The notes under the pieces are model-generated. The model did no database searches. It saw only the letters and a program-made list of their open reading frames with translations, and was not told the DNA's origin. 64,000 nt of DNA from Patescibacteria group bacterium. GTDB lineage: Bacteria > Patescibacteriota > Minisyncoccia > RBG-13-40-8-A. The DNA lies in NCBI GenBank assembly GCA_018897295.1, contig JAHILA010000014.1:67891-131890 (forward strand). Direction: 5' to 3'. A program made the position numbers and the translations under genes. Position 1 is the first letter of the stretch. Each line of letters opens with the position of its first letter. Below are positions 20,388 to 48,478 of the stretch, piece after piece.

Positions 20388-21553
20388 TGTTAAAATTCCC
20401 AGAAAATTTTTATTGGGGCACAGCTACATCTGCATATCAAGTGGAAGGAGGGATAAAAAATGATTGGACCTGCCTTGCCGGCAGGCAGGGTGTAGCCGGG
20501 GAAAAATTTGATGCTGGAATTTGTTGCGACCATTACAATCGGTTTGAAGAGGATTTTAATTTAGCAAAAGAGATAAATAATAATGCCCACCGATTTTCAA
20601 TTGAGTGGGCTCGTATTGAACCCGAGAAAGGAAAATTTGACCAAAAAGAAATTGAGCATTACAGAAAAGTAATTTTGGCGCTTAAAGAAAGAGGGCTGGA
20701 GCCGTTTGTGACTTTGTATCATTGGACTCTGCCTGTTTGGTTTGCTGAGAAGGGCGGGCCTGCCTCGCCGAGTCAAGGCGGGTGGTTGAATAAAGACGCA
20801 CCAAAAGATTTTGAAAAATTTGTTGAGAAAATAATATTAGAGTACAAGGATTTAGTTAAGTTTTGGATTACTTTAAATGAGCCGAATGTTTATGTTTCGC
20901 ATTGTTATTTGCGCGGCGACTGGCCGCCATTCGAGAAAAATTACAGCAATTCCCAAAAGGTTTTAAACCAGTTGGTCGAAGCGCATAAATTAGCTTATAA
21001 AAAAATTCACGAAATCTCTCCTCGTGCTATAGTCGGCATAGCTAAGAATAATATTTGGTATCGCGGTATCATAGAATTAGTTTTAAATTATAAATGGAAT
21101 CATTGGTTTTTAAACGAGATTAAGAATTATCAGGATTTTATTGGTTTAAATTTCTATTTTAGTTCTTCTTTTTTAAATTTTATTTTTAAAAACAGGAATG
21201 TTAGTGATCTTGGATGGGGAATTGTGCCAGAAGGGATTTATCACGTTTTAAAAGATTTGAAAAAATACCAGAAACCGATTTACATTACGGAAAACGGCTT
21301 GGCTGATGCCAAGGATGAAAAACGGGCAAAATTCATTATTGAGCATTTAAAATGGGTTCATAAAGCAATTGGAGAAGGAGTTGATGTGCGCGGATATTTC
21401 CATTGGTCGTTATTGGATAATTTTGAGTGGGATAAAGGATTTGAGCCACATTTTGGCTTGATTGAAATTGATTATAAAACTCTTCAACGAATTCCGCGCC
21501 CAAGCAGTAAGGTTTACGCGGGAATTTGTAAGAATAATGGAATAAATTTATGA
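20387..21553 (+). CDS. glycoside hydrolase family 1 beta-glucosidase
   Basis: YQVEGG, TLNEPN (acid/base Glu) and YITENG (nucleophile Glu) GH1 motifs; contains two in-frame GC palindromes. Confidence 0.8.
   Translation: MLKFPENFYWGTATSAYQVEGGIKNDWTCLAGRQGVAGEKFDAGICCDHYNRFEEDFNLAKEINNNAHRFSIEWARIEPEKGKFDQKEIEHYRKVILALKERGLEPFVTLYHWTLPVWFAEKGGPASPSQGGWLNKDAPKDFEKFVEKIILEYKDLVKFWITLNEPNVYVSHCYLRGDWPPFEKNYSNSQKVLNQLVEAHKLAYKKIHEISPRAIVGIAKNNIWYRGIIELVLNYKWNHWFLNEIKNYQDFIGLNFYFSSSFLNFIFKNRNVSDLGWGIVPEGIYHVLKDLKKYQKPIYITENGLADAKDEKRAKFIIEHLKWVHKAIGEGVDVRGYFHWSLLDNFEWDKGFEPHFGLIEIDYKTLQRIPRPSSKVYAGICKNNGINL
20468..20500. repeat. GC palindrome copy (CCTGCCTTGCCGGCAGGCAGG) in frame in the GH1 gene
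   Basis: Encodes CLAGRQGVAGE; CCTGCC/GGCAGG arms. Confidence 0.55.
20752..20785. repeat. GC element copy (GGGCGGGCCTGCCTCGCCGAGTCAAGGCGGGTGG) in frame in the GH1 gene
   Basis: Encodes GGPASPSQGGW; shares GAGTCAAGGCGGG with the copy at 25568. Confidence 0.55.
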
Positions 21554-24942: not shown

Positions 24943-25848
24943 ATGAAAGAAGCATTACTTTACAAAAAATTAGGTGGCAGTAAAGTTCAATGCAATGCGT
25001 GCAATCACAGATGCGTTATATTGGATAAAAAGCGCGGAATCTGCGGAGTGCGTGAAAATCAAAACGGAAAATTATATAGTTTGGTCTACGGCAAAATAAT
25101 TGCCGAACATATTGACCCGATTGAGAAAAAGCCCCTGTATCATTTTTTGCCAGGGACTTTTTCTTTGTCTTTTGCCACGGCTGGCTGTAATTTTCGCTGC
25201 TTGCATTGCCAAAATGCGGATATATCCCAGCTTGGTCCAGACCGCGGTCCCGATCCAAGTCAGGACTATGGTCGGGACAAAACCCCAGAACAGATTGTTC
25301 AAGACGCCTTAGATGGCAAATGCCCGAGCATTTCTTATACTTATACCGAACCAACTGTTTTTGTGGAATTTGCTTTGGATTGCATGAAATTAGCGCATAA
25401 AAAGGGATTAAAAAACATCTGGGTTTCTAATGGATATATGACTAAAGAATGTTTGGACTTAGTTGGTCCTTATTTGGATGCAATTAATATTGATTTGAAA
25501 GGATTTACAGAAAAATTTTATCAGGAAATTTGTGGAGCGCGGCTTAAGCCGGTTTTAGAAAATTTGACCCGTCTCGCGTCGACGAGCTTCGCGAGTCAAG
25601 GCGGGAAAGTCCATTTGGAAATTACAACTCTGATAATTTCTGGCAAGAATGATTCAGAAAAAGAACTAAAAAACATTGCCGAATTTATTAAAAAAGAATT
25701 AGGAGATGAAATTCCTTGGCACGTTTCGCGCTTTTTCCCGCAATATAAATTGTCGGATATCCCATCTACGCCAGTTGAAAAAATTCATCAAGCAGTTGAA
25801 ATCGGCAAAAGGGTTGGTTTAAGATATGTTTATCCGGGAAATGTGTAG
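24943..25848 (+). CDS. AmmeMemoRadiSam-system-type radical SAM enzyme
   Basis: N-terminal C-x2-C-x-H-x-C then CNFRCLHCQN radical SAM motif; two GC-rich in-frame insertions. Confidence 0.75.
   Translation: MKEALLYKKLGGSKVQCNACNHRCVILDKKRGICGVRENQNGKLYSLVYGKIIAEHIDPIEKKPLYHFLPGTFSLSFATAGCNFRCLHCQNADISQLGPDRGPDPSQDYGRDKTPEQIVQDALDGKCPSISYTYTEPTVFVEFALDCMKLAHKKGLKNIWVSNGYMTKECLDLVGPYLDAINIDLKGFTEKFYQEICGARLKPVLENLTRLASTSFASQGGKVHLEITTLIISGKNDSEKELKNIAEFIKKELGDEIPWHVSRFFPQYKLSDIPSTPVEKIHQAVEIGKRVGLRYVYPGNV
25228..25278. repeat. GC-rich hairpin-forming insertion (GTCCCGA...TCGGGAC) in the radical SAM gene
   Basis: Encodes QLGPDRGPDPSQDYGRD right after the CxxxCxxC motif, where relatives have no such segment; produces antisense ORF artefacts. 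Confidence 0.45.
25568..25612. repeat. GC element copy (CTCGCGTCGACGAGCTTCGCGAGTCAAGGCGGG) in the radical SAM gene
   Basis: Encodes RLASTSFASQGGK; shares GAGTCAAGGCGGG with the copy at 20752. Confidence 0.55.
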
Positions 25849-25878: not shown

Positions 25879-26331
25879 ATGGGGAAAATAATCTTAATCT
25901 TAATAATTTTAGGTGTAGTAATTCCTATTTATCTTTTGGCTGTCCAGCCTCGCGTTGCGCGAGTCGAGGCAGGGTTTCCAAATGATCTACCAGGGCCCAA
26001 AATATCGGCTGACAGTAAATTTTATTTTTTGAAAATCTGGTGGGAGAAGATTGTTATATTTTTCACTTTTGGCGCTGAAAACCGGGCGGAAAGATACAAG
26101 GTGTTTGCGGAAAAGAGAGTTATAGAAGCCAAAGAAATGCTTTTAAAGGGAAATACGGAATTAGCCGAGAAGTTGAATGGTGTTTATCAGTCTTATTTGA
26201 ACAAAGCCAAAGATGCGCTAAACAATGCGATTCAAAAAGCGATAGAAAAGCAAAAAGAAAATTTGAAGCAAGCATTAGAGGAAAAACTTGATGAGATAAT
26301 GCAAAAAATTAAGGACTCACTAAGTATATAA
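25879..26331 (+). CDS. membrane-anchored coiled-coil protein, unknown function
   Basis: N-terminal TM, then a K/E-rich helical C-terminus; carries a GC palindrome at 25945-25975. Confidence 0.4.
   Translation: MGKIILILIILGVVIPIYLLAVQPRVARVEAGFPNDLPGPKISADSKFYFLKIWWEKIVIFFTFGAENRAERYKVFAEKRVIEAKEMLLKGNTELAEKLNGVYQSYLNKAKDALNNAIQKAIEKQKENLKQALEEKLDEIMQKIKDSLSI
25945..25975. repeat. GC palindrome copy (CCTCGCG-TTG-CGCGAGTCGAGGCAGGG)
   Basis: Perfect CTCGCG/CGCGAG arms; encodes QPRVARVEAG. Confidence 0.5.
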
Positions 26332-28824: not shown

Positions 28825-30288
28825 ATGAATAAGTATGAACCTACAATTGGGCTGGAGATTCACGTTGAATTAAAAACAAAGACAAAAATGTTTTGTTCTT
28901 GTTTGAACGACCCTCTGGAAAAAGAAGCAAATAAAAATATTTGTCCGATTTGTACTGCTCAGCCAGGGAGTTTGCCTGTTATTAACGAAGAAGCAATTTA
29001 CAGTGTAATAAAAGCAGGATTGGCTTTAAACTGCAAAATTGCAGAGAAAACTTGGTTTGAAAGAAAGAATTATTTTTACCCTGATTTGCCAAAAGGTTAT
29101 CAGATTACGCAATTTGAAGCTCCTTTATGTTTTAAGGGAGAATTGAATAATATTAAAATCAGGAGAATACATTTGGAAGAAGATACTGGAAGATTAATGC
29201 ATGACAAAGGCGATCTACCTGCCGGTAGGCAGGGATATTCTTTAGTTGATTATAATCGCGCTGGCATGCCTTTAATGGAACTAGTTACAGAGCCGGACAT
29301 CCATTCTGCTGAACAGACAAAGAATTTTGCCCAAGAATTGCAATTAATTTTAAGATATCTGGGAATTTCCGATGCTGATATGGAAAAGGGACAGATGCGC
29401 GTGGAAGCAAATATAAGTTTAAATATGGGCACAAAAGTTGAAGTGAAAAACCTTAATTCATTCAAGAGCGTTGAAAAAGCAATTGAATACGAGATTATCA
29501 GGCAGCAAAGGATTTTGGAAAAAGACGACCTGCCTGCCGGTAGGCAAGGTAAGGTAGAACATGAAACAAGAGGATGGAATGACGCGAAGCAGGAAACATT
29601 CTCCCAGAGAATAAAGGAAACATCTGATGATTATCGTTATTTCCCAGAGCCGGATTTGCCGCCACTAGACATTAAAGCTGAATTGATTAAGAAATTGCAG
29701 GCAGAAATTCCTGAGTTGCCGCAAGCAAGAAGGAAAAGATTTAAAAGAGAGTATAAATTACCAGAAAAAAGCGCAGAAGTATTGGTGAATTTTAAATATT
29801 TGGCTGATTTTTTCGAGCACGCAGTAAGCGAGCTTAATGCTTGGCTAAAGTCGGGCAAGATTAAAACCGATATCAATAGATTGATAATTTTAAGCTCCAA
29901 TTATATTATTACTGAGTTTCCAAAATTTGTTTCTACAAGTCGGGAGATTAAAATAACTGCGGAAAATTTTGCAGAATTGATTTATTTGACTTTTATCGGC
30001 GAGGTTTCCTCAAGCGGGACGCAGGAAGTTTTAAAAGAAATGTTTAGAACTGGCGCAGACCCTTCGCAAATTATTGAATCTAAAAACCTGAAGCAATTAA
30101 GCAAAGAAGGGGACTTGGATAAGATTGCGGAGAAAATAATAAAAAACAATCCCCAGCCAGTTGAGGATTACAAGCAAGGAAAGGAAACCGTATTGCAGTT
30201 TTTAGTTGGTCAGGCAATGCGCGAGACCAAAGGCAAAGCCAATCCCGAGATAGTTGCCAAGATATTGCGGGATATATTGACAAAATGA
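28825..30288 (+). CDS. gatB: Asp-tRNA(Asn)/Glu-tRNA(Gln) amidotransferase subunit B
   Basis: YEPTIGLEIHVELKTKTKMFCSC N-terminus and C-terminal GatB/YqeY domain; two in-frame LPAGRQG insertions. Confidence 0.9.
   Translation: MNKYEPTIGLEIHVELKTKTKMFCSCLNDPLEKEANKNICPICTAQPGSLPVINEEAIYSVIKAGLALNCKIAEKTWFERKNYFYPDLPKGYQITQFEAPLCFKGELNNIKIRRIHLEEDTGRLMHDKGDLPAGRQGYSLVDYNRAGMPLMELVTEPDIHSAEQTKNFAQELQLILRYLGISDADMEKGQMRVEANISLNMGTKVEVKNLNSFKSVEKAIEYEIIRQQRILEKDDLPAGRQGKVEHETRGWNDAKQETFSQRIKETSDDYRYFPEPDLPPLDIKAELIKKLQAEIPELPQARRKRFKREYKLPEKSAEVLVNFKYLADFFEHAVSELNAWLKSGKIKTDINRLIILSSNYIITEFPKFVSTSREIKITAENFAELIYLTFIGEVSSSGTQEVLKEMFRTGADPSQIIESKNLKQLSKEGDLDKIAEKIIKNNPQPVEDYKQGKETVLQFLVGQAMRETKGKANPEIVAKILRDILTK
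29215..29234. repeat. GC palindrome copy (CCTGCCGGTAGGCAGG) in gatB
   Basis: Encodes DLPAGRQGY. Confidence 0.6.
29527..29549. repeat. GC palindrome copy (CCTGCCTGCCGGTAGGCAAGG) in gatB
   Basis: Encodes DDLPAGRQGK, about 310 nt from the first copy. Confidence 0.6.
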
Positions 30289-30708: not shown

Positions 30709-32580
30709 TCAGGCGAATTTTTTAAACCAGGTAAGCTGGCGCTTGGCATATTGAAGAGTATGGAGTTTAATCGTCTCGATGATTTGTTTTCTGTTCTCGG
30801 AGTTTTTCCATTCTGCGTAGCCAATAGTATTTTTCAATACTGTTGTCCAGCCATATTTTTTGACTAATTTATTCACTTCTTTTTCCAGCCCCATTTTAAT
30901 CATTTTATCAACCCTTTTATCTATTAATTTTTTCAGCTCTGCTGAAGATTTTTCAATTTTAATATACTGGACACTGAATCGGGGACTGCTTTTTAATTGA
31001 GGTATTGGTTTATTGGTTTTAATGATAATCTCCAACGCCCTGATTAATCTGCGTTTGTTTTTAGCATCAATATTTTTTGCTCGATTCGGGTCGAGTTTTT
31101 TTAATTGTTTAAATAATTCTTTCTCGGTTTTCTTTTCTAATTCTTTTCTTAATTTCCAATCAGGTTTAACTTCTGGAATTACTATTTCATTAACCATTGC
31201 CTGAATATAAAATCCAGTGCCGCCGCAAATAATCGGTGTTTTTCCTTGTTTATAAATTTTATCTATTGCTTGTAATGCCAATTTTTTGTACTCTGTGACA
31301 CTAATCTGTTTTTGGGGATTAGCAATATCTATTATATGGTGAGGGATGTCTTGCATTTCTTTCTTCGTGGTCTTGCCTGTGCCAATATCCATTCCTTTAT
31401 AAACTTGCCTTGAATCAGCTGAAATAATTTCACCATTTATTTTTTTAGCCAGTTTGATGGCAAAAGTGGATTTTCCCGAAGCAGTTGGTCCAATAATGAC
31501 AATCAGTTTAGGTTTTGTTTTGGTTAATTTATTTAAAACTCTCCACCTCCTTACCTTTTCTTTCCATAGGACATCGTCTTTAAATCTGCTGGCCAACGTT
31601 CCGGGCCTGGTTGAATATTTATTAATATAAGCCATGTCAAATCCGACTTTTTTGAATAATCCGACTGTATTCTCAAATTGTTTTTTTGTTTCGCCGGGAA
31701 AACCCACAATTACATCTGTGGTAATTTTTGCTTGAGGGATTTTTGCACGGATTTTTCTAATTAAATTAAGATATTTTTCTGTTGTGTATCCGCGATTCAT
31801 CTTTTTCAGAATTTCATTGTCTCCACTTTGAACCGGTAAATGGATTTCTTTGCTGATTTTTGGCGATTCAGTGATTACATCAATCAATTCTGCGGAGAAA
31901 TCTTTAGGATGGGAAGTAAGAAATTTTACTGTAAAATCACCCGGGATTCCGGAAATAAGTTTAAGCAATATTGGAAAAGTAGTTTTGCCACCCTGCGGGT
32001 GGTCAGCCGTGGGCTGATCTTTATATGAATTAACGTTTTGTCCGAGTAAAATAATCTCTTTATATCTATTTTTAATGAGATTTTTTATTTCAAAAATTAT
32101 ATTTTTTGTTGATCTTGAAACCTCTCTGCCGCGGGTGTAGGGGACTGCGCAGTAAGAGCAGAAATTGTTGCAGCCGGTCATTATGGGTACAAATGCTGAT
32201 TTTTGATTTGTCTGCCTCGCTGGCAGGCAGGCCTGCCTGCCAGCGAGGCAGGAGTATTTTGGTTTCATCTCCAGATATTTTTTCCCGAGAAATTCATTGA
32301 TTGATAAAATCTCGTTAAAGAAAGATTTAAATTTAGGTTTATCTGCCTTTAAAACGCAGCCAGTTAAAATTTTCTTTGCCTTGATTTTTGCAAATTTTTT
32401 CTTTAGGCCGAAGATTCTATCAATCGCGCTTTGTCGTATAGAGCAGGCGACAACTACTATCAGGTCAGCATTTTCCATTTTATCCGTATTCCTATAATTT
32501 CGTTGTTCTAAAAATGAAGCGATTCTCTCGGAATCGCTTTCATTCATTTGGCAGCCGAATGTTTTGATGTAATACCTCAT
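30709..32580 (-). CDS. bifunctional fusion: MiaB-like radical-SAM methylthiotransferase (N-terminal, no TRAM domain) plus tRNA dimethylallyltransferase MiaA (C-terminal)
   Basis: N-terminus MRYYIKTFGCQMNESDSE (MTTase N domain) and CNNFCSYCAVPYTRGRE radical SAM motif; C-half GPTASGKST P-loop and ADSRQVYKGMDIGTGK MiaA motifs. Confidence 0.75.
   Translation of the reverse strand: MRYYIKTFGCQMNESDSERIASFLEQRNYRNTDKMENADLIVVVACSIRQSAIDRIFGLKKKFAKIKAKKILTGCVLKADKPKFKSFFNEILSINEFLGKKYLEMKPKYSCLAGRQACLPARQTNQKSAFVPIMTGCNNFCSYCAVPYTRGREVSRSTKNIIFEIKNLIKNRYKEIILLGQNVNSYKDQPTADHPQGGKTTFPILLKLISGIPGDFTVKFLTSHPKDFSAELIDVITESPKISKEIHLPVQSGDNEILKKMNRGYTTEKYLNLIRKIRAKIPQAKITTDVIVGFPGETKKQFENTVGLFKKVGFDMAYINKYSTRPGTLASRFKDDVLWKEKVRRWRVLNKLTKTKPKLIVIIGPTASGKSTFAIKLAKKINGEIISADSRQVYKGMDIGTGKTTKKEMQDIPHHIIDIANPQKQISVTEYKKLALQAIDKIYKQGKTPIICGGTGFYIQAMVNEIVIPEVKPDWKLRKELEKKTEKELFKQLKKLDPNRAKNIDAKNKRRLIRALEIIIKTNKPIPQLKSSPRFSVQYIKIEKSSAELKKLIDKRVDKMIKMGLEKEVNKLVKKYGWTTVLKNTIGYAEWKNSENRKQIIETIKLHTLQYAKRQLTWFKKFA
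32212..32252. repeat. tandem inverted GC palindrome (perfect 41-nt palindrome) in frame in the miaB domain
   Basis: CTGCCTCGCTGGCAGGCAGG-C-CTGCCTGCCAGCGAGGCAG; encodes CLAGRQACLPARQ on the minus strand. Confidence 0.65.
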
Positions 32581-34298
32581 TTTATTTTCTTGATAAATCC
32601 TTCAATTTTCATCATTCCGATATCTCCTTTTTCTCTGGTTCTTACGCGAACAGATTTATTTTTTATTTCTTCATCTCCAACTACAAGCATATAAGGGATT
32701 TTTTGTATTTCTCCCTCGCGGATTTTTTTAGAAACAGTTTCGTTTTCATTCTTTACTTTAATTCTTAAACCATGAGTCATAAGTTTTTCTTTGATTTGCT
32801 CGGCATATTTCGCGTGGCGGTCTCCAATAGGAATAACATAAACCTGGATAGGGGAGAGCCAGAATGGCAAAGCACCAGCATAATTTTCAAGCAAAACCCC
32901 GATGAATCTTTCTATTGAACCAAGCAGGGCTCGATGAACCATATATGGCCTTTGTTTTTTGCCTTTGTCGTCAATATAAGTCAAATCAAATTTTTCCGGC
33001 AGATTAAAGTCAAACTGGACAGTAGTGCATTGCCATTCCCTTCCTAATGAATCTTTGATTTTGATATCAATTTTCGGCCCGTAAAAAACCCCTCCGCCTT
33101 TATCAACTTGGTATTTTAGATTCAATTTATTTAAGACATTTTTTAGAGTATTGGTTGCTTTTTCCCAATTCTTCGGAGTTCCTACATATTTTTCCGGCCG
33201 AGTAGCCAGATAAATATTATATTCTTTAAATCCAAATTCTTTTAGAAGTTTGATGCCGAATTTTACAGCAGCCATCATTTCATCAGCCAATTGGTCCGGG
33301 GTGCAGATTATGTGCGCATCATCCTGGGTAAATCCTCTGACTCGGGTCAAGCCATGCAGAACTCCGGAACGTTCAAACCTATAAACCGTACCGAGTTCTG
33401 CCCAGCGTACGGGCAAATCTCTGTAGCTTCGGCTTTTGGTCTTATAGATTTTCATGTGGAACGGGCAGTTCATCGGCTTGATTAAGTATTTATCGCCTTC
33501 AACTTGCATTGGGCCGAACATATTTTCTTTGTAAAAATCAGTATGGCCTGATGTTTGCCAGAGTTTTATCCGGCCGATATGGGGAGTGTCGATTATTTCA
33601 TAGCCGTTTTTTAGATGTTCATTAACCCAGTAATTTTCAATTACTCCCTTTAAAGCCGTTCCCTTAGGATGCCAGAGGATTAGTCCCGGTCCGACTTCTT
33701 CGTCAATGCTGAATAAATCCAGTTTTTGGCCGATTAAACGATGGTCGCGCTTTTCCGCTTCTTTGATTTGTTTCAGATAAGCATCCAACTCTCCTTTAGT
33801 ATTAAAAGCAATTCCGTAAATTCTTTGCAGCATGGGATTTTTTTCATCTCCGCGCCAATAAGCGCCAGCGATTTTTGTCAGCTTAAATGCATCAGGATTA
33901 ATTTCCTTTGTGGATTTTACGTGCGGGCCTTTGCATAAATCAGTAAAATCTCCGCTAATATAAATAGTTGCGTTTTTGCTGTCGAGGTCTTTTATAAGCT
34001 CCAATTTATATGGCTGGTTTTTGAATAATTTTATAGCTTGTGACTTGGGGACTAATTTTCTTTTGAATTCAATATTTTGTTTGATTAGCTCGCGCATTCT
34101 TTTTTCAATCTTCGGTAGATCTTCTGGAACTAAGGTCGCCCTCGCCTTCGCTCCGCGAGCTTCGGCGGGCAAATGGAAGTCGTAGTAAAATCCGTTCTCA
34201 ATTGTCGGGCCAATAGCAAATTTAGTTCCAGGAAATAATTCCTGAACTGCATATGCCATAATGTGGCTTATTGAATGTCGTATTGTATCAATTTTCAT
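32577..34298 (-). CDS. thrS: threonyl-tRNA synthetase
   Basis: TGS/editing N-region, class II core motifs, anticodon-binding C-domain; 4-bp overlaps with flanking genes. Confidence 0.9.
   Translation of the reverse strand: MKIDTIRHSISHIMAYAVQELFPGTKFAIGPTIENGFYYDFHLPAEARGAKARATLVPEDLPKIEKRMRELIKQNIEFKRKLVPKSQAIKLFKNQPYKLELIKDLDSKNATIYISGDFTDLCKGPHVKSTKEINPDAFKLTKIAGAYWRGDEKNPMLQRIYGIAFNTKGELDAYLKQIKEAEKRDHRLIGQKLDLFSIDEEVGPGLILWHPKGTALKGVIENYWVNEHLKNGYEIIDTPHIGRIKLWQTSGHTDFYKENMFGPMQVEGDKYLIKPMNCPFHMKIYKTKSRSYRDLPVRWAELGTVYRFERSGVLHGLTRVRGFTQDDAHIICTPDQLADEMMAAVKFGIKLLKEFGFKEYNIYLATRPEKYVGTPKNWEKATNTLKNVLNKLNLKYQVDKGGGVFYGPKIDIKIKDSLGREWQCTTVQFDFNLPEKFDLTYIDDKGKKQRPYMVHRALLGSIERFIGVLLENYAGALPFWLSPIQVYVIPIGDRHAKYAEQIKEKLMTHGLRIKVKNENETVSKKIREGEIQKIPYMLVVGDEEIKNKSVRVRTREKGDIGMMKIEGFIKKIK
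34135..34171. repeat. GC element copy in the thrS N-terminal region
   Basis: GCCCGCCGAAGCTCGCGGAGCGAAGGCGAGGGCGAC on the coding strand; encodes LPAEARGAKARATL. Confidence 0.5.
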
Positions 34299-37200
34299 AT
34301 AATTTCTTCTGCATTATCACAGAGGATTTTTAGTTGGTCGTCTTTATCAGTCAGGCGGCCCTCGACCAAGATGACTTTTCCTTCCTGCCAAATGGTCGGA
34401 TTTTTTTCCAAAATTGTGGCAAAGACCAAGATTTCTATCGCGCTGGTCAAGTCCTCCGCTTTTACAAACAGCATCGGCTTGCCGGATTTGGTAATAAATT
34501 TGGTAATCTTGATAATTACCCCTGCAATTTTAACTTTACTATCTTTTTTCTCTTTGAGCAAGTCCCTAATCTGGATTATTTTGCCTTTCAAGAAGCCTTC
34601 GTGGTTTTTAAGCGGATGGTCAGAGATATACATTCCCAGTAAATCTTTTTCCCATTGGATTTCCTCGCTTAACAATTTTCTTTTTCCATTGCCGTTTCCG
34701 TTAGTGAATAATAATTGGTTTTTATTTGTTATTAGTTCTTCGCCGAATAAGCTGGCTTGGCCGTTATCTTTTGTTTTTTGCGATTCTTTAGAGAATTCCA
34801 AGAGTTCCTCTAAATGTTCTAATAATTCTTTTCTTTGGGCAAGAGCATCGAATGCTCCTGCGCGGATTAAGTTTTCCAGAGATTTTTTATTGATAATTGC
34901 TGATTTCCCCGCTTGAGGAGTAAGGCGAGTGAGGAAACCAGCCATGGTTTGAAAATTTCCATTTTGCTTTCTTTCTTCAACAATTGCTGCCACAACATTA
35001 TGACCTACGTTTTTTATTGCTGCTAATCCGAAGCGAATTGATGGAGGCCCGCCTGCCGGCGAGGCAGGGACGAGCGTAAAATTATCAAAACTTTCATTGA
35101 TATCCGGAGCTAAAACCTGGATGCCCATTTTTTTCGCCTCATCAACTAAAATATTAATCCTATCCAGGTCTTTTTGGTCTGCCTGCATTAAAGCAGTGAT
35201 AAATTCCTCTGGATAATTCGCTTTTAAATAAGCTGTCTGGTAAGCAATTAGAGCATAACAGGTTGCATGAGAACGATTAAATCCATATTGGGCAAATGGC
35301 TCGATAGAATCCCATATTTTCTGTGCGATTTCTTTATCAATTCCGTTTTTCACCATGCCGTCAATCATTTTATCGGCCTGCTGTTCAAGTAGTTTTCTAA
35401 TTTTTTTGCCGACTGCTTTTCTCAAAACATCTGCTTCGGACATGGTAAATCCCGCTAAATCTTTTGCAATTTGCATCAGTTGTTCCTGGTAAACAGTAAT
35501 GCCGTAAGTATTTTTCAGGATTGGCTCGAGTTTCGGATGGACATATTTAATTTCTTTTTCTCCGTGTTTCCGGGCAATATAATCGGGAATCAAATCCATG
35601 GGTCCGGGCCGGTATAAAGAAATCATGACAATAATGTCTTCTAAGTCATTTGGTTTTAATTTCTGCAAATATTTTCTCATGCCGGAAGATTCCAATTGGA
35701 ATACCCCGACTGTATTTACTCTTTTGAAAAGTTCAAAGGTTTTTTTGTCGTCTAATGGTATATCATCAATATTAATTTTAATTCCCCGGAGTTTTTCAAT
35801 GAGATTTAAAGCTGTTTCAATAGTGGTTAGATTTTTTAAGCCGAGAAAATCCATTTTTAAGAGTCCAAGCGCTTCAATGCTGTGCATTTCATATTGAGTG
35901 ACAATAGAATTCTCGTCCTGCGGTGCAAATTGGCGCGGAGCATAAAAATCAATCGGATTTTTAGTGATTACAATTCCGCAGGCATGGGTTGAAGCATGGC
36001 GGGCAACGCCTTCTAATTTCGTAGCAATATCAATCAATATTTTTACCTGGTCATCAGTGTCGTAGGATTGGGAAAGTTCGGGAACCTTTTCTAGGGCTTC
36101 TTTTAATCCAAAGCCGAAAGGAATCATTTTAGCAATTTGGTCGCAGAAAGCATAGGTATAGCCGAGAGCTCTGCCAGTGTCTCTGATTGCAGCGCGGCTG
36201 GCCATTGTTCCAAAAGTAATAATTTGGGCAACGTGGTCAGCTCCGTATTTTTTTGCAACGTAATTAACAATTTCATTTCGTCTAATATCGGCAAAATCTA
36301 AATCAATATCAGGCATACTTATTCTTTCCGGATTAAGAAATCTTTCAAAAAGAAGTTTGTATTTCAGCGGGTCGACATTAGTGATATTTAAAAGATAAGA
36401 GACAATCGAACCTGCTGCTGAACCTCTTCCTGGCCCGACGACAATGTTGTTATTTTTTGCCCAATTAACTACGTCCTGGACAATCAGGAAGTACGAAGCG
36501 AAGCCGGTTTTTTCAATAACCCCCAATTCAAATTTCAGTTGTTTTTTTGCCTGGTTGAGATTTTCTCCAAAGTCTCTTTTGCGCAATCCTTTTTCGCATA
36601 ATTTTTTCAGATAAGAATTCGCTGTTTCGTCTTCAGGAAGAGGAAAGTGGGGAAGCTCGATTTTATCAAGCTCCAGTTTAAGGTTGCACATATCAGCGAT
36701 TTTCTGGGTGCTTTCAATCGCTTCCGGAATATTGCGAAATGCGCTAATCATTTCATCGGGCGGTTTCAGGGAATAATCTTCGCCTTTCATAGTCATTCTG
36801 TTTTTTTCACCAACAGTGCGGTTGGTCTGGACGCAAAGCAGAACATCGTGCACATCAGCATCTTCTTTGTTTAAATAATGAACATCATTAGTGGCAACCA
36901 ATGGCAAATTTGTTTCTTTTGCTAGTTTGACAATCTTTTCATTCAGACGGACCTGGTTTAAATCATTCGGATGGTCCATTATTTCAAGATAAAAATTGTC
37001 CTTGCCGAAAAGTTTTGAATATTCTAAGGTAAGTTTTTTTGCTTTGGCAATGTCGTCAGCCAGAAGCGCGGACGGAATTTCTCCTTGCGGACAGGCGGTC
37101 AGAGCAATCAGTCCCTCGTGATACTCTTTCAAAATTTCTTTGTCGATTCTCGGCTTATAATAAAAACCCTCAAGATGGGCTTTGGTTACGAGTTTGATTA

Positions 37201-37573: not shown

Positions 37574-37888
37574 ATGCCAGTACCAAAACAAAGACATACC
37601 AAAAGCAGAAGAAATAGGCGAAGATCTCATCTTAAATTAAAGAAGAGAACTTTAGGTAGCTGTCCGAAATGTGGAGAGCCGATTTTGCCGCATCATATCT
37701 GCGCTTTTTGCGGATTTTATAATGGTGTAGAAAGAATTGATGTTCTGGCGAAATTAGAGAAGAAAGCCAAGAAGAAAAAGGAAAAAGAACTAAAAGAACA
37801 CGAAGGAGAAGTTAAAGAAACAGCAAAAGCCATGCCTACCGGCAGGCAGGTCAAACCATTAAGTTTAGAAGAATTGTCTAAAAAATAA
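37574..37888 (+). CDS. rpmF: 50S ribosomal protein L32 with a long K/E-rich C-terminal extension
   Basis: [22 protein letters not shown] and CPKCG...CAFCG zinc ribbon; 104 aa versus about 60 typical. Confidence 0.85.
37834..37850. repeat. GC palindrome copy (CCTACCGGCAGGCAGG) in the rpmF tail
   Basis: Encodes MPTGRQV. Confidence 0.5.
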
Positions 37889-37889: not shown

Positions 37890-38333
37890 ATGTCTTCAAG
37901 GCACATTGCTCGCTCAATAGTCTTGCAATCTTTATACGAACTGGATTTCAACTTCGCCCGTGGGCGAGACAAGCAAGAGAAAAATCTTAATATTGATAAA
38001 GTTATTGAAAGAAACAAACAGGAATTTGGGTTAGGAATTGAAGAAAATGAATTCATAAATAATTTGGCGCACGGGGTTTTAGAGCATCAATCACAGATTG
38101 ATGATATTATTACTAAGTCAGCTCCAGAATGGCCTTTGAACCAGATTACTATTGTTGACAGGAATGTGCTGAGAATCGGGATTTATGAATTATTGTTCGG
38201 CGATAAAGAGCAAGTTCCGCCGAAAGTGGCAATTAATGAAGCAATTGAATTAGCCAAAGGTTATGGCGGGGACAGCTCTGGCAGATTTGTAAATGGAGTT
38301 TTGGGGACGATTTTTAGAGAAATGAATAAATAA
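37890..38333 (+). CDS. nusB: transcription antitermination factor NusB
   Basis: [14 protein letters not shown] and [26 protein letters not shown] NusB motifs. Confidence 0.8.
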
Positions 38334-39082: not shown

Positions 39083-39472
39083 ATGTTAAAAATACGATTA
39101 CAGAGAATTGGAAAAAAGAATAGCCCGAGCTTTCGGGTTGTTTTGGTTGAACACACCATGAGGCCTCAGGGAAAATTTTTGGAACTGCTTGGCTCATATA
39201 ATAAAATTCAGAAACAGAAGAGTTTTAATAAAGAAAGAATCTTGTATCGGATTTCCAAAGGAGCGCAAGTTTCTCCAACCGTGCATAATTTATTAGTTGA
39301 TGAAAAGATTATTGATAAACCAAAGGTAAAAGCATGGAAGCCCAAGAAAAAAACAGTCGAAGAGGCGAAGAATGTTGTACCTCCGACGCCCGCTGAAGGC
39401 GGGGTCGGAGTCCCGACCTCTCCGCCAGATGCGGAGAGCGTCGGGATTGACATAGAACCAAAAAAGGAATAA
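39083..39472 (+). CDS. rpsP: 30S ribosomal protein S16 with C-terminal extension
   Basis: MLKIRLQRIGKKNSPSFRVVLVE S16 N-terminus; start moved to the internal ATG at 39083 (the ORF-track start at 39047 adds a non-conserved leader); the GC-rich tail (39380-39445) encodes PTPAEGGVGVPTSPPDAESVG. Confidence 0.8.
   Translation: MLKIRLQRIGKKNSPSFRVVLVEHTMRPQGKFLELLGSYNKIQKQKSFNKERILYRISKGAQVSPTVHNLLVDEKIIDKPKVKAWKPKKKTVEEAKNVVPPTPAEGGVGVPTSPPDAESVGIDIEPKKE
39380..39445. repeat. double GC hairpin element in the rpsP 3' tail
   Basis: CCGACGCCCGC-TGAA-GGCGGGGTCGG and GACCTCTCCGC-CAGAT-GCGGAGAGCGTC. Confidence 0.5.
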
Positions 39473-41837: not shown

Positions 41838-42086
41838 TTAAACACATAATTAATTAACCCCAGTAGTACAAACCTTTGGTTTGACTACGGGGCAAGCATA
41901 ATTCTTATGTAAAAAGAGCGAACAATTAAACGTACTTTAAAACAGAGTTTAGTTTTGGAATTTAGTTCAAAAATTGAGCTCTGTTTTAAATTGTTCTTTA
42001 AAATAGAAATATGTAATTGTACAGTAAGTTTGTGTGAGTTATTAGAGATCGAATCTTTTATAGTTGTTCTGATACAACTAAAATTA

Positions 42087-43560
42087 TTATTGAGAGTTTG
42101 ATCCTAGCTCAGGACGAACGCTGGCGGCGTGGATAAGGCATGCAAGTCGAATGGGTTTAGACCCATGGCGAACGAGTTAGTAACACGTAGGTACATCCCT
42201 CTGACTTGGGCATAACCCCGCGAAAGCGGGGATAATTCCCAATGGTGTCCCGATTTATCGGGACTAAAGGTTCCGGTGCAAATCGGAATCGGTGAGAGAG
42301 TGGCCTGCGGCCTATCAGCTAGTTGGTGAGGTAATAGCTTACCAAGGCTATGACGGGTAGGGGGCGTGAGAGCGTGTTCCCCAACGAGGGCACTGAGATA
42401 CGGGCCTTACTCCTACGGGAGGCAGCAGTCGAGAATCTTCCACAATGGGCGAAAGCCTGATGGAGCGACGCCGCGTGCATGAAGAAGTCCTTCGGGATGT
42501 AAAATGCTTTTATAAGGGAGCAATTTTTTGAGTGTACCTTATGAATAAGGGGTTGCTAAACTCGTGCCAGCAGCAGCGGTAATACGAGTGCCCCAAGCGT
42601 TGTCCGGAATTACTGGGCGTAAAGCGTCTGTAGGGGGTTTGATACGTCTTCTGTTAAATTTCGATGCTCAACATCGGAGCTGCAGGGGAAACGGTCAGAC
42701 TAGAGAGTGTGAGAGGCTGATGGAACTTAAGGAGTAGGGGTGAAATCCGTTGATACTTTAGGGAACACCAAAGGCGAAGGCATTCAGCTGGTGCATTTCT
42801 GACCCTGAGAGACGAAAGCGTGGGGAGCAAAAAGGATTAGATACCCTTGTAGTCCACGCCCTAAACTATGAATACTAGCTGTCTGAAGTATCGACCCTTC
42901 AGGTGGCGAAGCTAACGCGTTAAGTATTCCGCCTGGGAAGTACGGTCGCAAGACTAAAACTCAAAGGAATAGACGGGAGCTTGCACAAGCGGTGGAGCGT
43001 CTGGTTTAATTCGATGATAAGCGTAGAACCTTACCAGGACTTGAAATTCTAGTGAAACCCCGATGAAAGTCGGGTCTTCTACAAGGACACTAGAACAGGT
43101 GCTGCATGGTTGTCGTCAGCTTGTGGCGTGAGTTGCTCCGTTAATTCGGGTAACAAGCGCAACCCCTGTTGTCTGTTATATGTGTCAGACGAAACTGCCC
43201 CGTGATACGGGGAGGAAGGTAGGGATGACGCCAAATCAGCATGGCCCTCTGATGTCCTGGGCAACACAGGCGCTACAATGGCCGATACAATGGGTTGCCA
43301 AGCCGTAAGGTGGAGCCAATCCCATCAAAGTCGGTCCCAGTTCGGATTGGGGTCTGCAATTCGACCCCATGAAGTTGGAATCGCTAGTAATCGCAGATCA
43401 GCTACGCTGCGGTGAATACGTTCTCAAGCTTTGTACTCACTGCCTGTCACACCAGAGAAGCCGGGGGCACCTGACATTCTCGCATTGCGGGACCTAAGGT
43501 GAATTCGGTGACTAGGGTGAAGTCATAACAAGGCATCCGTAGGGGAACCTGTGGATGGAA
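42087..43560 (+). rRNA. 16S ribosomal RNA (3' boundary uncertain; canonical anti-SD not present after helix 45)
   Basis: AGAGTTTGATCCTAGCTCAG 5' end, internal universal blocks, 3' GTAGGGGAACCTGTGGATGGA; 515-site variant GTGCCAGCAGCAGCGGTAA. Confidence 0.9.
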
Positions 43561-43671
43561 AATATTTTTACTTAGTAACCATTTTGGATGCTAAGGAGAG
43601 TCGATTGAATCCGCCTTTGCGTAAAGCTTCGGCGGACAAGAGGGATTTAGATTTTTGTCCAAATAAAAATC

Positions 43672-43704
43672 AGGCCCGCTTCGACTCGCGAAGCGAGGCG
43701 AGTA
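43672..43704. repeat. GC palindrome element downstream of the 16S body
   Basis: GCCCGCTTCGACTCGCGAAGCGAGGCGAG (GCTTCG-ACTCG-CGAAGC). Confidence 0.5.
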
Positions 43705-43734
43705 TCAGGATAACTATAAAAGATTTGATTCAAA

Positions 43735-43761
43735 AAATCCTCCGCGTTGCGGGGGATTTTT
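43735..43761 (+). terminator. terminator-like hairpin containing the only CCTCC near the 16S 3' end
   Basis: AATCCTCCGCG-TTG-CGGGGGATTTTT. Confidence 0.45.
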
Positions 43762-43832
43762 AGTTCTCTATTGCATATTGTATTATTTTAGCTGTATAAT
43801 AGAATTAGTAATTATTAAATAAAAAAAACATT

Positions 43833-43991
43833 ATGGCAGATGTAGCATACTGCGTAAAATGCAGAAAAAAAGAAGAGATGAAAAATGCAGTAGAGGTTAA
43901 AATGAAAGGGAAGGGGGGAGACAGAAGGGCATTGAAAGGAATTTGTCCTGTTTGTGGAACTGGAATGTTCAGGATTTTAGGCAAAGCTTAA
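43833..43991 (+). CDS. small zinc-ribbon protein (52 aa), candidate
   Basis: CVKC-x24-CPVC; below the ORF-track size cutoff; followed by a hairpin AATCCCGCG-ACG-CGGGATT; no SD. Confidence 0.35.
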   Translation: MADVAYCVKCRKKEEMKNAVEVKMKGKGGDRRALKGICPVCGTGMFRILGKA

Positions 43992-44048
43992 AAGATTTTA
44001 AAAAATCTTATCAAAATTAATCCCGCGACGCGGGATTAATTTTGAGAA

Positions 44049-44120
44049 GGGCGTGTAGTTCACCGGTAGAACGCTTCACTGATAATGAAGAAGTAGAAGG
44101 TTCGACTCCTTCCACGCCCA
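44049..44120 (+). tRNA. tRNA-Ile (anticodon GAT)
   Basis: Manual cloverleaf: GGGCGTG/CACGCCC acceptor, anticodon loop CTGATAA, T-arm GAAGG-TTCGACT-CCTTC. Confidence 0.8.
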
Positions 44121-44143
44121 CTCAACTCGTCTTAATTTTGTTC

Positions 44144-44214
44144 GGGCCTATAGTTTAATGGTAGAACACCGCATTTGCAATGCGGAAATAGCAGTCCGAT
44201 TCTGCTTAGGTCCA
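44144..44214 (+). tRNA. tRNA-Ala (anticodon TGC)
   Basis: G3:U70 identity pair, anticodon loop TTTGCAA; T-loop slightly atypical. Confidence 0.7.
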
Positions 44215-44218
44215 CAAT

Positions 44219-44247
44219 TAAAAAATCTCGCTATGCGAGATTTTTTA
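44219..44247. terminator. bidirectional Rho-independent terminator (tRNA cluster / murC)
   Basis: AAAAATCTCGC-TAT-GCGAGATTTTTT. Confidence 0.75.
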
Positions 44248-44262
44248 ATATTTTAATTCATC

Positions 44263-45567
44263 TTATTTTTTCATTTCTTCTCCAATCTTATATACATCTC
44301 CCGCGCCGAGAAAGAGAATAATACTATTTTTATCAGTATTTTGTTCCAAATAGTTTTTTATTTCGTCAAAACTACTGATGTATTTCGCATTGACGGTCTG
44401 CATTGCTTTAACTAAATCTTTGGAATGGATTGTGTGGTCATCTTTTTCACGCGTAGCATAGATATCAGTGATAATAACTTCATTTGCCAAATTAAAACTT
44501 TCTGCAAAATCATTTAATAAAAGTTTTGTGCGCGAATATAAATGCGGTTGGAAAACAACAATCAGTTTATAGTTTGGATATTGTTCGTTGCAGGTTTTTA
44601 AAGTTGCTTTTATTTCTGTGGGGTGGTGGCCGTAGTCATTGTAAAGTAATGCGCCATTTTTTGCATTGCCCATAAATTCAAACCTGCGCCAGGTGCCAGT
44701 ATAATTTTTTAGGATTTTTAAAGCGGTTTTTTCTTCTATTCCGCACAATTTGGCCGCGTCAAACGCGGCTTGCGCATTTTTAAGATTGTGTTCGCCGGGA
44801 ATGGATAATTTAATATCGGCTTTTCCTTCATTATAATCAATTATCTTTGCCAATTGGTTTATTTTTTTTGCTTTTTTAATTGCTTTGTCCGTATTTTCGT
44901 CATTTAAATCGCAGATAATATATTCTTTTGTTTTGGCGATTAATTTTGCAAAAGCATTTTGGATGTTTTCAATATTTTCATAATAATCCAAATGGTCACT
45001 ATCAATATTTAAAATTACGAGAATATTCGGAGTCAGGTTCAAGAATGATTCTTTATATTCGCAGGCTTCAACAATAAAATATTTACTGCTTCCTAAAACA
45101 AAATTATCTTCCTGTTTTTTTAAAAATCCGCCGACAACAACAGTAGGGTCTAAGTTTCCATAAATCATCAATTCAGCAAGCATGGAAGTAGTGGTTGTTT
45201 TGCCGTGGGCTCCGGATATGGCAATGGTATACATATCTTTGGAAATCAATCCAAGGATTTCTGGATACGAATAAATTGGAATGTTTAGCGTTCTGCCATA
45301 AATTAATTCTGGATTATCCTCGGTTATGGCAGGGGAGTAGATAATCATATTTGTATCTGAAGGCAGATTTTCTTTTTTGTGGTCAATAAAAACCTTCCCC
45401 CCGATTTTTTCAATCCGTTCAGTCGTTTTTCCCGCGGAAATATCAGAACCAGTAACCTTTATACCTTTTAACCGCGCCATTCTGGCAATTGCAGACACTC
45501 CGACACCCCCAATTCCGATAAAATGTATTTTCTTAACGTGGTCGAACATAAGTTTAAATTTTATCAC
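44263..45567 (-). CDS. murC: UDP-N-acetylmuramate--L-alanine ligase
   Basis: IHFIGIGGVGVSAIA N-terminal Rossmann, GAHGKTTTTSM P-loop, Mur ligase C-domain. Confidence 0.85.
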   Translation of the reverse strand: MIKFKLMFDHVKKIHFIGIGGVGVSAIARMARLKGIKVTGSDISAGKTTERIEKIGGKVFIDHKKENLPSDTNMIIYSPAITEDNPELIYGRTLNIPIYSYPEILGLISKDMYTIAISGAHGKTTTTSMLAELMIYGNLDPTVVVGGFLKKQEDNFVLGSSKYFIVEACEYKESFLNLTPNILVILNIDSDHLDYYENIENIQNAFAKLIAKTKEYIICDLNDENTDKAIKKAKKINQLAKIIDYNEGKADIKLSIPGEHNLKNAQAAFDAAKLCGIEEKTALKILKNYTGTWRRFEFMGNAKNGALLYNDYGHHPTEIKATLKTCNEQYPNYKLIVVFQPHLYSRTKLLLNDFAESFNLANEVIITDIYATREKDDHTIHSKDLVKAMQTVNAKYISSFDEIKNYLEQNTDKNSIILFLGAGDVYKIGEEMKK

Positions 45568-45629
45568 AGAGAATCTTTGTTGCCAAATTAATTTTGTGCT
45601 ATAATTAATTATGTTATAATTAAATTAAA

Positions 45630-45678
45630 GGTCGACCTGCCTGCAACGTCAGCAAACTGTCTTGCGTGGCGGGCAGGG
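45630..45678. repeat. GC palindrome element in the divergent intergenic region
   Basis: GACCTGCCTGCAACG...CGTGGCGGGCAGGG. Confidence 0.45.
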
Positions 45679-45703
45679 AATTAAGAATTAAAATTATTTT
45701 ATT

Positions 45704-46372
45704 ATGTTAGAAATATTACTTGATTCATTGACGCAAATTTGGCAGAGCTTTATTGAGTTCTTACCGACATTATTGGCATCTTTAATCGTTTTCATTGTAG
45801 GCTGGTTGATTGCTATATTCTTGGGCAAGATGGTTAACCGAATGATAAAAGCTATAAAACTTGATCTGCTTTTAGAAAGGCTTAATTTTCAGAAAGCATT
45901 AGCCAAAGCAAGATTAAAATTGGACTCTCCGAAGTTTTTTGAAGAACTTGTAAAATGGTTTTTCATTATCGTTTTCTTAATGACAGCAGTTGAGATTTTA
46001 GGATTAGTAGAGGTAACTCTGTTTTTAAAGGGCATCCTTTATTACATACCTAATGTTGTGATTGCCGCTATCATGCTTTTGGCCGCAGCTATTGTTGCGA
46101 AGTTTATGCAGAAATTAGTGAAAGCCAGTGCTGATACTGCCGGCCTTTCATCAGCAAATGCGATTTCCGGAGTTGTGAAGTGGGCAATTTTGATTTTCGG
46201 TTTTGTAATTGCTTTAACCCAATTAGGAATTGCCGCAGCTTTAATCCAGACAATCATTATTGGAATTATTGCTATGATTACGATTGCAGGCGGTCTTGCA
46301 TTCGGCCTAGGAGGAAAGGATCTGGCAGCTAATATTCTGGACAAAATTAGGCAGGATTTAAGCGATAGATAG
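45704..46372 (+). CDS. membrane protein with conserved TM-helix repeats (MscS/CmpX-like family, tentative)
   Basis: Repeated hydrophobic helices with G/A-rich faces; no enzymatic motif. Confidence 0.4.
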   Translation: MLEILLDSLTQIWQSFIEFLPTLLASLIVFIVGWLIAIFLGKMVNRMIKAIKLDLLLERLNFQKALAKARLKLDSPKFFEELVKWFFIIVFLMTAVEILGLVEVTLFLKGILYYIPNVVIAAIMLLAAAIVAKFMQKLVKASADTAGLSSANAISGVVKWAILIFGFVIALTQLGIAAALIQTIIIGIIAMITIAGGLAFGLGGKDLAANILDKIRQDLSDR

Positions 46373-46383
46373 TAATAGAGGAC

Positions 46384-46412
46384 TTGACACGCGATTTTTT
46401 ACCATTTACAAT
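46384..46412 (+). promoter_or_regulatory. candidate 23S rRNA promoter
   Basis: GAGGACTTGACA-N17-TACAAT about 200 nt upstream of the 23S 5' end. Confidence 0.55.
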
Positions 46413-47136
46413 GGTAGTGTTGTTAGTTTATATGAGAAAAAACCAAAAACAATTTATAAAAAAGAGCGGTTGATAAAACCAGGTATTTTCATACCCGTGG
46501 ATGTCAAACCGCTAAAAGCGGTTTTTTCAATCCTGAACTTTGAAAATTGAATATGTATAGCAAGTAATAAAAGTAATAATAAGTAGTAGTATCTATAAAT
46601 TGCCAGCTATATTAAGCAGGTTATATATTAAGGGTGTATGGTGGATGCCTTGACATTAGAAGACGAAGAAGGACGTGGCGTAACTGCGATAAGCCTCGGG
46701 GAGGTGTGTAGCGACCTTAGATCCGGGGATGTCCGAATGGGGAAACCCAATATAGTGATAAACTATATTATCCCGACTTTATTGTTGGGAGGTGAACTCG
46801 GCGAAGTAAAACATTTCAGTAGCCGGAGGAACAGAGAAAAACTTTATTCCCCAAGTAGTGGCGAGCGAAAAGGGAAGAGCCCAAACCTGATGGTCCCGCA
46901 TTTGTGGGATTATTAGGGGTAGTAAGATAGTGACGTCGGGAGAAATCCCGGGGAGTGAATACAAAACTAAGACTTCCTTAGTTGAAAGGGATGGAAAGCC
47001 CTACCGAAGAAGGTAATAGTCCTGTAAGCGAAAAGGGTCTTATACTCCTAGTCATTAATCTTGAGTACCGCGAGAACATGCAGTCTCGCGGGAATCATCC
47101 TGAACTATCTAGGAAAGGCTAAATACTTCTAATGAT

Positions 47137-47175
<39 letters not shown>

Positions 47176-48447: not shown

Positions 48448-48478
<31 letters not shown>

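Follow-up and report, generated by a model that had tools for sequence, protein, structure and literature searches.

The gatB gene in a 64,000-nt stretch of a Patescibacteria genome (contig JAHILA010000014.1; the whole stretch is called the window, with positions counted from its first letter) encodes the peptide LPAGRQG at two places, each time within a short GC-rich hairpin, and the question raised by this locus is how the two segments came to be there. In the current study it is considered reasonably probable that a miniature palindromic repeat, rich in G+C and non-autonomous, inserted here in two separate events, as a selfish element resembling repetitive extragenic palindromes (REPs) and the miniature inverted-repeat transposable elements known as MITEs. 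The window is AT-rich (37.6% G+C), and the host gene is a gatB: its product matches Thermotoga maritima GatB (3al0_B; E=4e-132) over residues 3-485 and has 100% identity with P0001, a GatB listed at NCBI under 'Patescibacteria group bacterium', in which the Pfam domains PF02934 and PF02637 (GatB_N and GatB_Yqey) were found. Near relatives of this protein are labelled Portnoybacteria. A preliminary description of the locus had focused on the gatB pair; the pair is real, but the repeat belongs to a genome-wide and cross-phylum family which that description missed, and the interest lies in the spread of this family across phyla and in the repeated use of one GatB loop, not in the pair itself.

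Copy 1 contains the exact 16-mer CCTGCCGGTAGGCAGG at 29218-29233, and copy 2 contains CCTGCCGGTAGGCAAG at 29533-29548, with one mismatch to the first. The spacing is 315 nt (105 codons; approximately 310 nt in the preliminary description), and the ranges given in that description (29215-29234 and 29527-29549) bracket the elements correctly. Translation of the open reading frame (ORF) confirms that both copies are in frame and yield the peptides described, D-LPAGRQG-Y (aa 130-138) and D-LPAGRQG-K (aa 235-243), with G-D preceding LPAGRQG at copy 1 and D-D at copy 2. The pair had been described as one palindrome occurring twice; the copies do share inverted arms, a family and a peptide, but they are not identical, and each is an imperfect palindrome, a hairpin with a stem of 6 and a loop of 4. 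They are separate variants, copy 1 reading CTA...CAG GGA and copy 2 CTG...CAA GGT, and their flanks have zero similarity outside the element. Matches to the 16-mer with at most two mismatches number six, at four sites in the window, compared to 0.00 expected from 100 dinucleotide-preserving shuffles. The G+C content of copy 1 is 0.67 (0.376 for the window), and RNA folding of the two gatB copies gives -14.6 and -15.0 kcal/mol (z ~ -3).

Comparison with other GatB sequences identifies both segments as insertions. Each is a 7-residue insertion (5-7 residues at site 1) relative to three solved GatB structures, and most of the 120 aligned GatB homologues lack both segments. In a codon alignment of gatB with four syntenic relatives (L001, L002, L004 and L005; 78-87% protein identity), filled and empty sites differ by exactly 21 nt. 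The empty site 1 reads GGC GAC|YAT, copy 1 being absent from L001 and L005, and the empty site 2 reads GAA GAC|GGN AAA, copy 2 being absent from L001, L002 and L004. Site 1 is filled and site 2 empty in L002 and in L126-L128, while L005 shows the reverse, with an 18-nt insert at site 2 (CTGCCTACCGGCAGGCAG) that is the reverse complement of the window core. Because relatives carry one site only and the insert of L005 has the opposite orientation, the two gatB copies are independent, as the preliminary description had proposed; the unrelated flanks and the presence of family copies in unrelated genes agree with this. At site 1, L126, L127 and L128 carry GAC CTG CCT GCC GGT AGG CAA GGN (AAG for AGG in L128) at equal position and orientation, and their flanking codons differ at many synonymous positions. 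The insert is near-identical in DNA among the bearers of site 1 besides the window, whose copy differs at three synonymous positions, and the 24-mer GACCTGCCTGCCGGTAGGCAAGGT of the window's copy 2 is identical to site 1 of L002 and L126. In L126, gatB also contains another copy, located at a third site (corresponding to ~K344|I345 of the window) and read in another frame as T-C-L-P-V-G-K, so the arrangement of two copies in gatB has arisen twice.

On a neighbor-joining tree of the 120 GatB proteins, the insert bearers are scattered and stand beside empty sisters. Both sites are filled in P0001/P0002 (empty sisters P0003 and P0006/7), and site 1 is filled in P0004 (shifted by two codons; empty sister P0003), P0005 (empty sister P0017), P0026 (empty and nearly identical sister P0047/48), P0063 and P0115. 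P0112 has an insert at a fourth site in GatB. Site 2 is limited to P0001/P0002 plus the opposite-orientation insert of P0008, whose sister P0018 is empty. Many independent gains are a more parsimonious account of this pattern than dozens of precise 21-nt losses.

The positions of the inserts were examined in an AlphaFold2 model of GatB from 55 homologues (mean predicted local distance difference test score, pLDDT, 86; predicted template modelling score, pTM, 0.82). Site 1 forms the tip of a predicted beta-hairpin between strands 124-126 and 139-141 and contains the sole segment of the model with pLDDT <50 (aa 129-135), and site 2 belongs to the loop that connects helix 213-232 to strand 247-252 (pLDDT ~62). 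Invariant columns bracket these loops (H126, S139, D142, N144 and R145; R226, Q227 and E247-W251). The loops vary in length among homologues, and neither site overlaps the invariant catalytic columns, a location that the preliminary description had raised as a possibility. According to the model, both inserts are placed in flexible, tolerant surface loops of GatB, and the loop location and low pLDDT support the earlier suggestion that GatB tolerates the peptide there; the inserts may well be neutral for GatB function. In homologues, insertions of no fewer than three further kinds occupy the site-1 loop, and one of these (SVRTSTTPGVVAIDKS) is itself a different DNA hairpin: in P0012-type gatB (L129:3001-4458) the loop contains ACTACGCC-AGG-CGTAGT within that sequence. 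Another palindromic insert, AGGGAGTCAAACTCCCCA (RESNSP), was observed in the gatB of L002 (L002:2342-3802).

The gatB copies belong to a family whose 18-nt core is CTGCCT-RCCGGY-AGGCAG. The core is centred on a codon boundary, and in consequence both orientations are read as L-P-A/T-G-R-Q, a nearly equal Pro/Gly-rich hydrophilic peptide. Approximately eight members were found in the window, four within 4 mismatches of the 20-mer described below and approximately four more diverged, and all window copies lie inside ORFs. Besides gatB, family copies occur in five window genes, those for a GH1 glycosidase, MiaB-MiaA, DnaE, ribosomal protein L32 (rpmF) and a PMT glycosyltransferase (Table 1), with copies at 0-4 mismatches from the core in genes unrelated to gatB. 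The rpmF copy has one mismatch to the 18-mer when matched on the - strand. The miaB palindrome is perfect (RNA minimum free energy -41.5 kcal/mol, z -9.6) and is an inverted doubling of the unit CTGCCTCGCTGGCAGGCAGG, which is single in L004 (7 aa, CLAGGQA). Synteny between the window and L001 extends over 21 kb, with 76-94% protein identity, and nearly all window-specific insertions of at least 6 aa relative to L001 are 18-42-nt hairpins with 63-89% G+C; the syntenic relatives have private hairpin insertions of their own. GC-rich hairpins unrelated in sequence to the family (63-78% G+C, 21-36 nt) are also present as in-frame insertions relative to the syntenic relatives, with peptides such as PTADHPQGG (miaB), PAEARGAKA (threonyl-tRNA synthetase gene) and LGPDRGPD (radical-SAM gene). 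Several hairpin families seem to invade the genes of the window.

Outside the window, the 18-mer was scanned against one genome per species, giving at least 120 matches. The matches listed fall in many Patescibacteria groups, Bacteroidota, Omnitrophota, Planctomycetota, Gamma- and Deltaproteobacteria, Bdellovibrionales, Nitrospirota and others, and include two Bacteroidota isolates, Winogradskyella echinorum KCTC 22026 and Olivibacter oleidegradans CCM 7765. Among the 126 matches listed, the base before the 18-mer is C in all 126 and the base after it is G in 121, and the flanks beyond are near random; these sharp ends define the discrete unit as the 20-mer CCTGCCTRCCGGYAGGCAGG, that is (CCTG)2-CCGG-(CAGG)2. 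Sharp ends combined with wide spread led to consideration of a sequencing or assembly artefact, which was rejected because copies are in frame, mutated, and present in independent samples (P0001 from NCBI, P0002 from ENA) and in isolates. Two or more copies lie within 8 kb in 19 of 130 loci. In genomes of at most 50% G+C, 10 of 103 copies are inside ORFs of at least 250 aa and 93 are outside. The LPxGRQ frame is used by 9 of the 10 copies in long ORFs of genomes and by 28 of 50 in metagenomes, compared to an expectation of one third (p ~4e-4 and ~8e-4, respectively). The CAA variant seen in copy 2 has at least 120 matches in metagenomes, at many unrelated sites, and its usual flanks, AAC and TT, mark it as a subfamily, ACCTGCCTGCCGGTAGGCAAGGT, which is the local subfamily of the window. 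Among IMG/VR viral contigs, the 20-mer was found in 51 stretches, whereas two control palindromes equal to it in composition gave 2 and 15. The element is rare in annotated plasmids (mostly one site recurring in Sinorhizobium strains, plus a few others) and in a cultured-phage collection (two weak matches), and neither collection supplied an annotation usable for it. One 29.5-kb contig classed as viral, IMGVR_UViG_3300037242_000417 (L158/L167/L170), carries six copies of the 18-mer and may be either a phage carrier or a misclassified cellular contig.

If the segments are insertions of a selfish repeat, a trans-acting activity would copy the palindrome to new sites, and the family would be actively mobile. 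Selection would then retain copies in frame, with a net length divisible by three (18 or 21 nt), and the survivors would sit in flexible, length-variable surface loops and would mostly be read as L-P-A/T-G-R-Q, a harmless Pro/Gly-rich peptide. This Patescibacteria genome has almost no intergenic space, and therefore copies would persist only at places where the damage is slight. The net 21 nt in gatB corresponds to a 23-mer of which the target had 2 nt beforehand (AC at site 1; GT both at site 2 and at the third site of L126), and this length is read as selection for in-frame events, not as a property of the mechanism. Flanking direct repeats are in excess, accompanying 29%, 14% and 24% of copies compared to 1-3% in shuffled-pair controls, and many of them consist of 7-9-nt units repeated in short arrays to either side of the element, as in the gatB of P0115 (L127:387-2033), which reads (AGTCAAA)n-palindrome-(AGTCAAA)n. 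The arrays differ by locus, with (AGTCAAA)n, (GGATTTC)n and (AATTATG)n among them (metagenome loci L226, L218, L294, L242, L261 and L234), and they may represent iterated target duplications or hairpin-induced slippage.

Several observations weigh against a REP/MITE-like element. Target-site duplications are absent at both gatB insertions of the window, and exact-adjacent duplications were not above control among the cross-phylum matches; flanking direct repeats accompany a minority of copies, and many are short tandem arrays, not clean duplications. No transposase or REP-associated tyrosine transposase (RAYT) was found in Pfam scans of 30 window ORFs (ORFs beyond ~53 kb and several others lay outside the scan). 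No mobiliser family recurs near copies, since all-against-all clustering of 1650 ORFs from ~290 palindrome loci returned only housekeeping or common families. The identical 20-mer extends across phyla, unlike the species-specific REP families known. At least five lineages share the position and orientation of site 1, which random insertion does not predict, so that either insertion is targeted or only such a configuration is tolerated, and the two are inseparable; the target-site preference suggested in the preliminary description is accordingly plausible, with one loop hit in several scattered lineages, but it cannot be told apart from selection. The gatB pair itself is unsurprising, as a Poisson estimate from ~8 copies per 64 kb gives ~0.5 genes per window with at least two copies. 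Two copies in one gene were rejected as a statistically meaningful signal because this density suffices and because miaB and the GH1 gene likewise contain two such elements; the pair is an ordinary consequence of the family. The constancy of the site-1 nucleotides and the identity of the 20-mer across phyla are only partly explained by a selfish repeat, or by any of the alternatives below.

A more far-reaching version, which is possible but doubtful, is that the 20-mer is an ultra-small mobile element that moves within and between distant phyla through a widespread host or phage activity with a preference for site and orientation, viral contigs being possible carriers. Such an element would explain the repeated hits on one GatB loop in separate Patescibacteria lineages. 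If the 20-mer were mobile across phyla, no shorter 'transposon-like' entity would be known from bacteria, and proteins of streamlined genomes would have in it a general source of loop insertions.

Alternatively, the palindrome could be a nucleic-acid signal selected by the host and tolerated in coding sequence, such as a site bound by a dimeric DNA-binding protein, a signal for DNA uptake or for segregation, or a hairpin in RNA that acts in mRNA stability or termination. The near-identity of the insert at synonymous positions in gatB genes whose proteins are 58-84% identical to that of the window, amid diverged flanking codons, is consistent with such a role, as are the sharp and perfectly conserved ends of the 20-mer across phyla, the stability of the hairpins, and the location of approximately 90% of copies in other phyla outside long ORFs, like terminators or REPs. 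In a consensus scan the two gatB copies were called terminator-like, on the sense strand for site 1 and on the antisense strand for site 2, which is weak evidence, and a sense-strand terminator in an essential gene would do harm. Copies decay through G-to-A changes that break the stem (CTA, CAA, AAG), near-identical relatives differ in presence and absence, and the density of ~1 per 8-16 kb is far under that of typical uptake sequences. Uptake signals and operators are also lineage-specific, not cross-phylum, and Rfam gave no match, either on the window at the gathering threshold or at E<=1 for four multi-copy loci. A host-selected signal is regarded as unlikely.

Even less likely is the formation of the hairpins de novo, for example by template switching or by snap-back synthesis where forks stall or breaks occur, with convergence on one sequence and no master element. 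This process would fit the miaB copy, in which a unit present once in L004 is perfectly doubled in inverted form, as well as the several unrelated GC-rich hairpins inserted in window genes, the short tandem duplications that flank many copies, and the 2-nt overlap (AC or GT) of the gatB inserts with their target. However, template switching builds from local sequence and leaves unexplained both the occurrence of identical 20-24-mers in different genes, genomes and phyla, at sites without homology, and the diagnostic CAA variant common to more than 120 sites, and the empty sites hold no precursor half-palindrome. Selection at the protein level for LPAGRQG as a peptide motif of GatB and other proteins, with the DNA palindrome as a by-product, is very improbable and largely refuted. 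The over-representation of the LPxGRQ frame in long ORFs and the presence of LPAGRQG in one GatB loop of several lineages would agree with it, but element DNA elsewhere is read as CLPVGK, LAYRQAG, PCLPAGR or PACRQAG, the majority of copies in other phyla fall outside long ORFs, the host proteins have unrelated functions, the nucleotide identity is higher than needed for a 7-aa motif whose codons are 2- to 6-fold degenerate, and the peptide is absent from most GatB homologues, including the solved structures. Finally, the origin of copy 2 by internal duplication, which the preliminary description had kept as its alternative, or of both copies from one ancient, vertically inherited insertion, is hardly credible despite the shared 8-residue peptide and the equal position and orientation of site 1 in distant GatB lineages: duplication is refuted by flanks that share nothing, by the different variants (CTA..CAG GGA and CTG..CAA GGT), by relatives with a single site and by the reversed site-2 insert, site 2 is confined to P0001/P0002 and the reversed insert of P0008, and vertical descent would require dozens of precise 21-nt losses on the tree.

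Other features of the window were noted during the analysis (Table 1). The gene that hosts the 42-nt palindrome encodes a 623-aa protein with MiaB-like (UPF0004 and Radical_SAM) and MiaA-like (IPT/IPPT) domains, called from the Pfam domains of the 79%-identical L001 ortholog and conserved in all relatives fetched; judging from these domains, it is probably a fusion of two consecutive tRNA-A37 modification enzymes. Two class-II tRNA synthetase genes of Asp/Asn/Lys type share the window with gatB and bear on whether GatCAB serves Asn-tRNA, Gln-tRNA or both. The rRNA genes (42086-50525) are interrupted by other genes. Two ORFs 5 kb apart have VirD4/TraG/TrwB-type coupling-protein ATPase domains, one with a treble-clef zinc finger, and are possibly parts of a DNA-transfer or uptake apparatus.

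Table 1. Coordinates of the gatB copies, other hairpin insertions and further features of the window.
Feature	Position	Strand	Remarks
gatB coding sequence	28825-30288	+	487-aa ORF, host of both copies
Copy 1 in gatB	29215-29235	+	21-nt insertion CTA CCT GCC GGT AGG CAG GGA (LPAGRQG); hairpin core 29218-29233
Copy 2 in gatB	29527-29547 (equivalently 29528-29548)	+	21-nt insertion GAC CTG CCT GCC GGT AGG CAA; hairpin core 29533-29548; 'CAA' subfamily
Family copy in rpmF	37829-37849	+	opposite orientation (AMPTGRQ); 21-nt insertion vs L001; Pfam Ribosomal_L32p
Family member in GH1 glycosidase gene	20470-20490	+	CTGCCTTGCCGGCAGGCAGGG (CLAGRQG); insertion vs L001; Pfam Glyco_hydro_1
42-nt palindrome in miaB-miaA fusion gene	32209-32250	-	CLAGRQACLPARQT, 20-bp arms; absent from L001 and L002
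18-nt member in dnaE	35048-35065	-	CCTGCC-GGCGA-GGCAGG (ASPAGG); insertion vs L001, 94% aa identity
Diverged candidate member in PMT-family glycosyltransferase gene	10603-10622	-	TGCCTCGCTGGCAGGCGGGT (LPARQV); identified by sequence
Related GC-rich hairpin insertion	20759-20782	+	PASPSQGG; direct repeat AGGGCGGG/AAGGCGGG on both sides
Unrelated hairpin insertions	20474-20503, 20759-20782, 25231-25254, 25585-25605, 25927-25974, 31987-32013, 34143-34169, 37950-37970, 39395-39415		
MiaB-MiaA ORF	30709-32580	-	623 aa
VirD4/TraG/TrwB-type ORFs	5296-6834, 12137-14593		
Asp/Asn/Lys-type tRNA synthetase genes	6836-8143, 50800-52107		
16S	42086-43570		followed by two tRNAs
Mur-ligase gene	44263-45567		opposite strand
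Gene with mechanosensitive-channel transmembrane-helix domain	45704-46372		
23S	46618-49342		2725 nt for 2925-position model
LAGLIDADG endonuclease ORF	49501-49980		past annotated 23S end
5S	50411-50525		

If a selfish repeat is indeed responsible, variation in protein length in these ultra-small genomes would stem predominantly from short GC-rich hairpin repeats, with consequences for annotation, for the alignment-based phylogeny of marker proteins of the candidate phyla radiation (CPR), and for structure prediction. A 20-nt unit present in many phyla and viral contigs would also point to an unrecognised mobilisation or repair activity, and the repeated hits on one GatB loop would amount to a natural experiment on the insertion tolerance of an essential enzyme. 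Full-text searches of the literature found no description of the sequence, the peptide, palindromes in CPR or RAYT in CPR. In-frame palindromic insertions are known from Rickettsia palindromic elements (RPEs) and intragenic REPs, while the sequence, the peptide and the occurrence of the phenomenon in Patescibacteria appear to be new.

Among known systems, RPEs, as cited in PMC3733652 (Ogata et al. 2000/2002; Claverie & Ogata 2003), are ~100-150 bp long, add 30-50 aa and are confined to Rickettsia. Like RPEs, the present element is a dispersed palindrome found in frame in many unrelated, often essential genes of a small AT-rich genome, tolerated at surface regions and varying in presence among close relatives, and palindromic in-frame insertions absent from orthologs were found in gatB, miaB, dnaE, rpmF and the GH1 gene. 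Unlike RPEs, it is 18-24 nt long, adds 6-7 aa and has a core found across many phyla; its exclusion from the RPEs is based on length and lineage (a Patescibacteria host), not on sequence comparison with RPE-1 to RPE-8. REPs and bacterial interspersed mosaic elements (BIMEs) comprise two superfamilies defined by a GTAG or CGTC end tag, and intragenic REPs exist (Di Nocera et al. 2013, PMC3733652). The element shares with REPs its nature as a short (20-40 nt class), GC-rich, imperfect palindrome that is multicopy, non-autonomous and occasionally intragenic, with a length of 18-24 nt, a stem of 6-9 bp and multi-copy loci in other genomes. In location it agrees with REPs in the cross-phylum set, where approximately 90% of copies lie outside long ORFs, and departs from them in the window, where all copies are intragenic. 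It differs in that its ends are CCTG...CAGG, with GTAG only in the loop (GGTAGG) of some copies, in the absence of a RAYT among the 30 window ORFs scanned, and in a 20-mer common to phyla rather than specific to a species.

Bacterial MITEs (Correia/NEMIS, RUP, ERIC; PMC10969869) are 70-300 bp long, with the terminal inverted repeats of a parent insertion sequence (IS) and consistent target-site duplications. The element resembles them in being non-autonomous, in consisting essentially of two inverted ends, and in the 7-9-nt direct repeats that flank a subset of its copies, and it differs in its length of ~20 nt, in the inconsistency of those repeats, and in that ORF clustering near copies gave no parent IS. 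A further parallel is found in mitochondrial GC-rich hairpin elements, which include the PstI palindromes of Neurospora. Yeast GC clusters (PMC4478555) and the repetitive hairpin elements of sponges (PMC2800124) are of the same kind. The mitochondrial GC clusters are organellar, have other sequences and are usually 30-60 nt or more, but like the presumably mobile element described here they are short GC-rich mobile hairpins of compact AT-rich genomes that are found in frame in coding regions, with no element-encoded transposase known.

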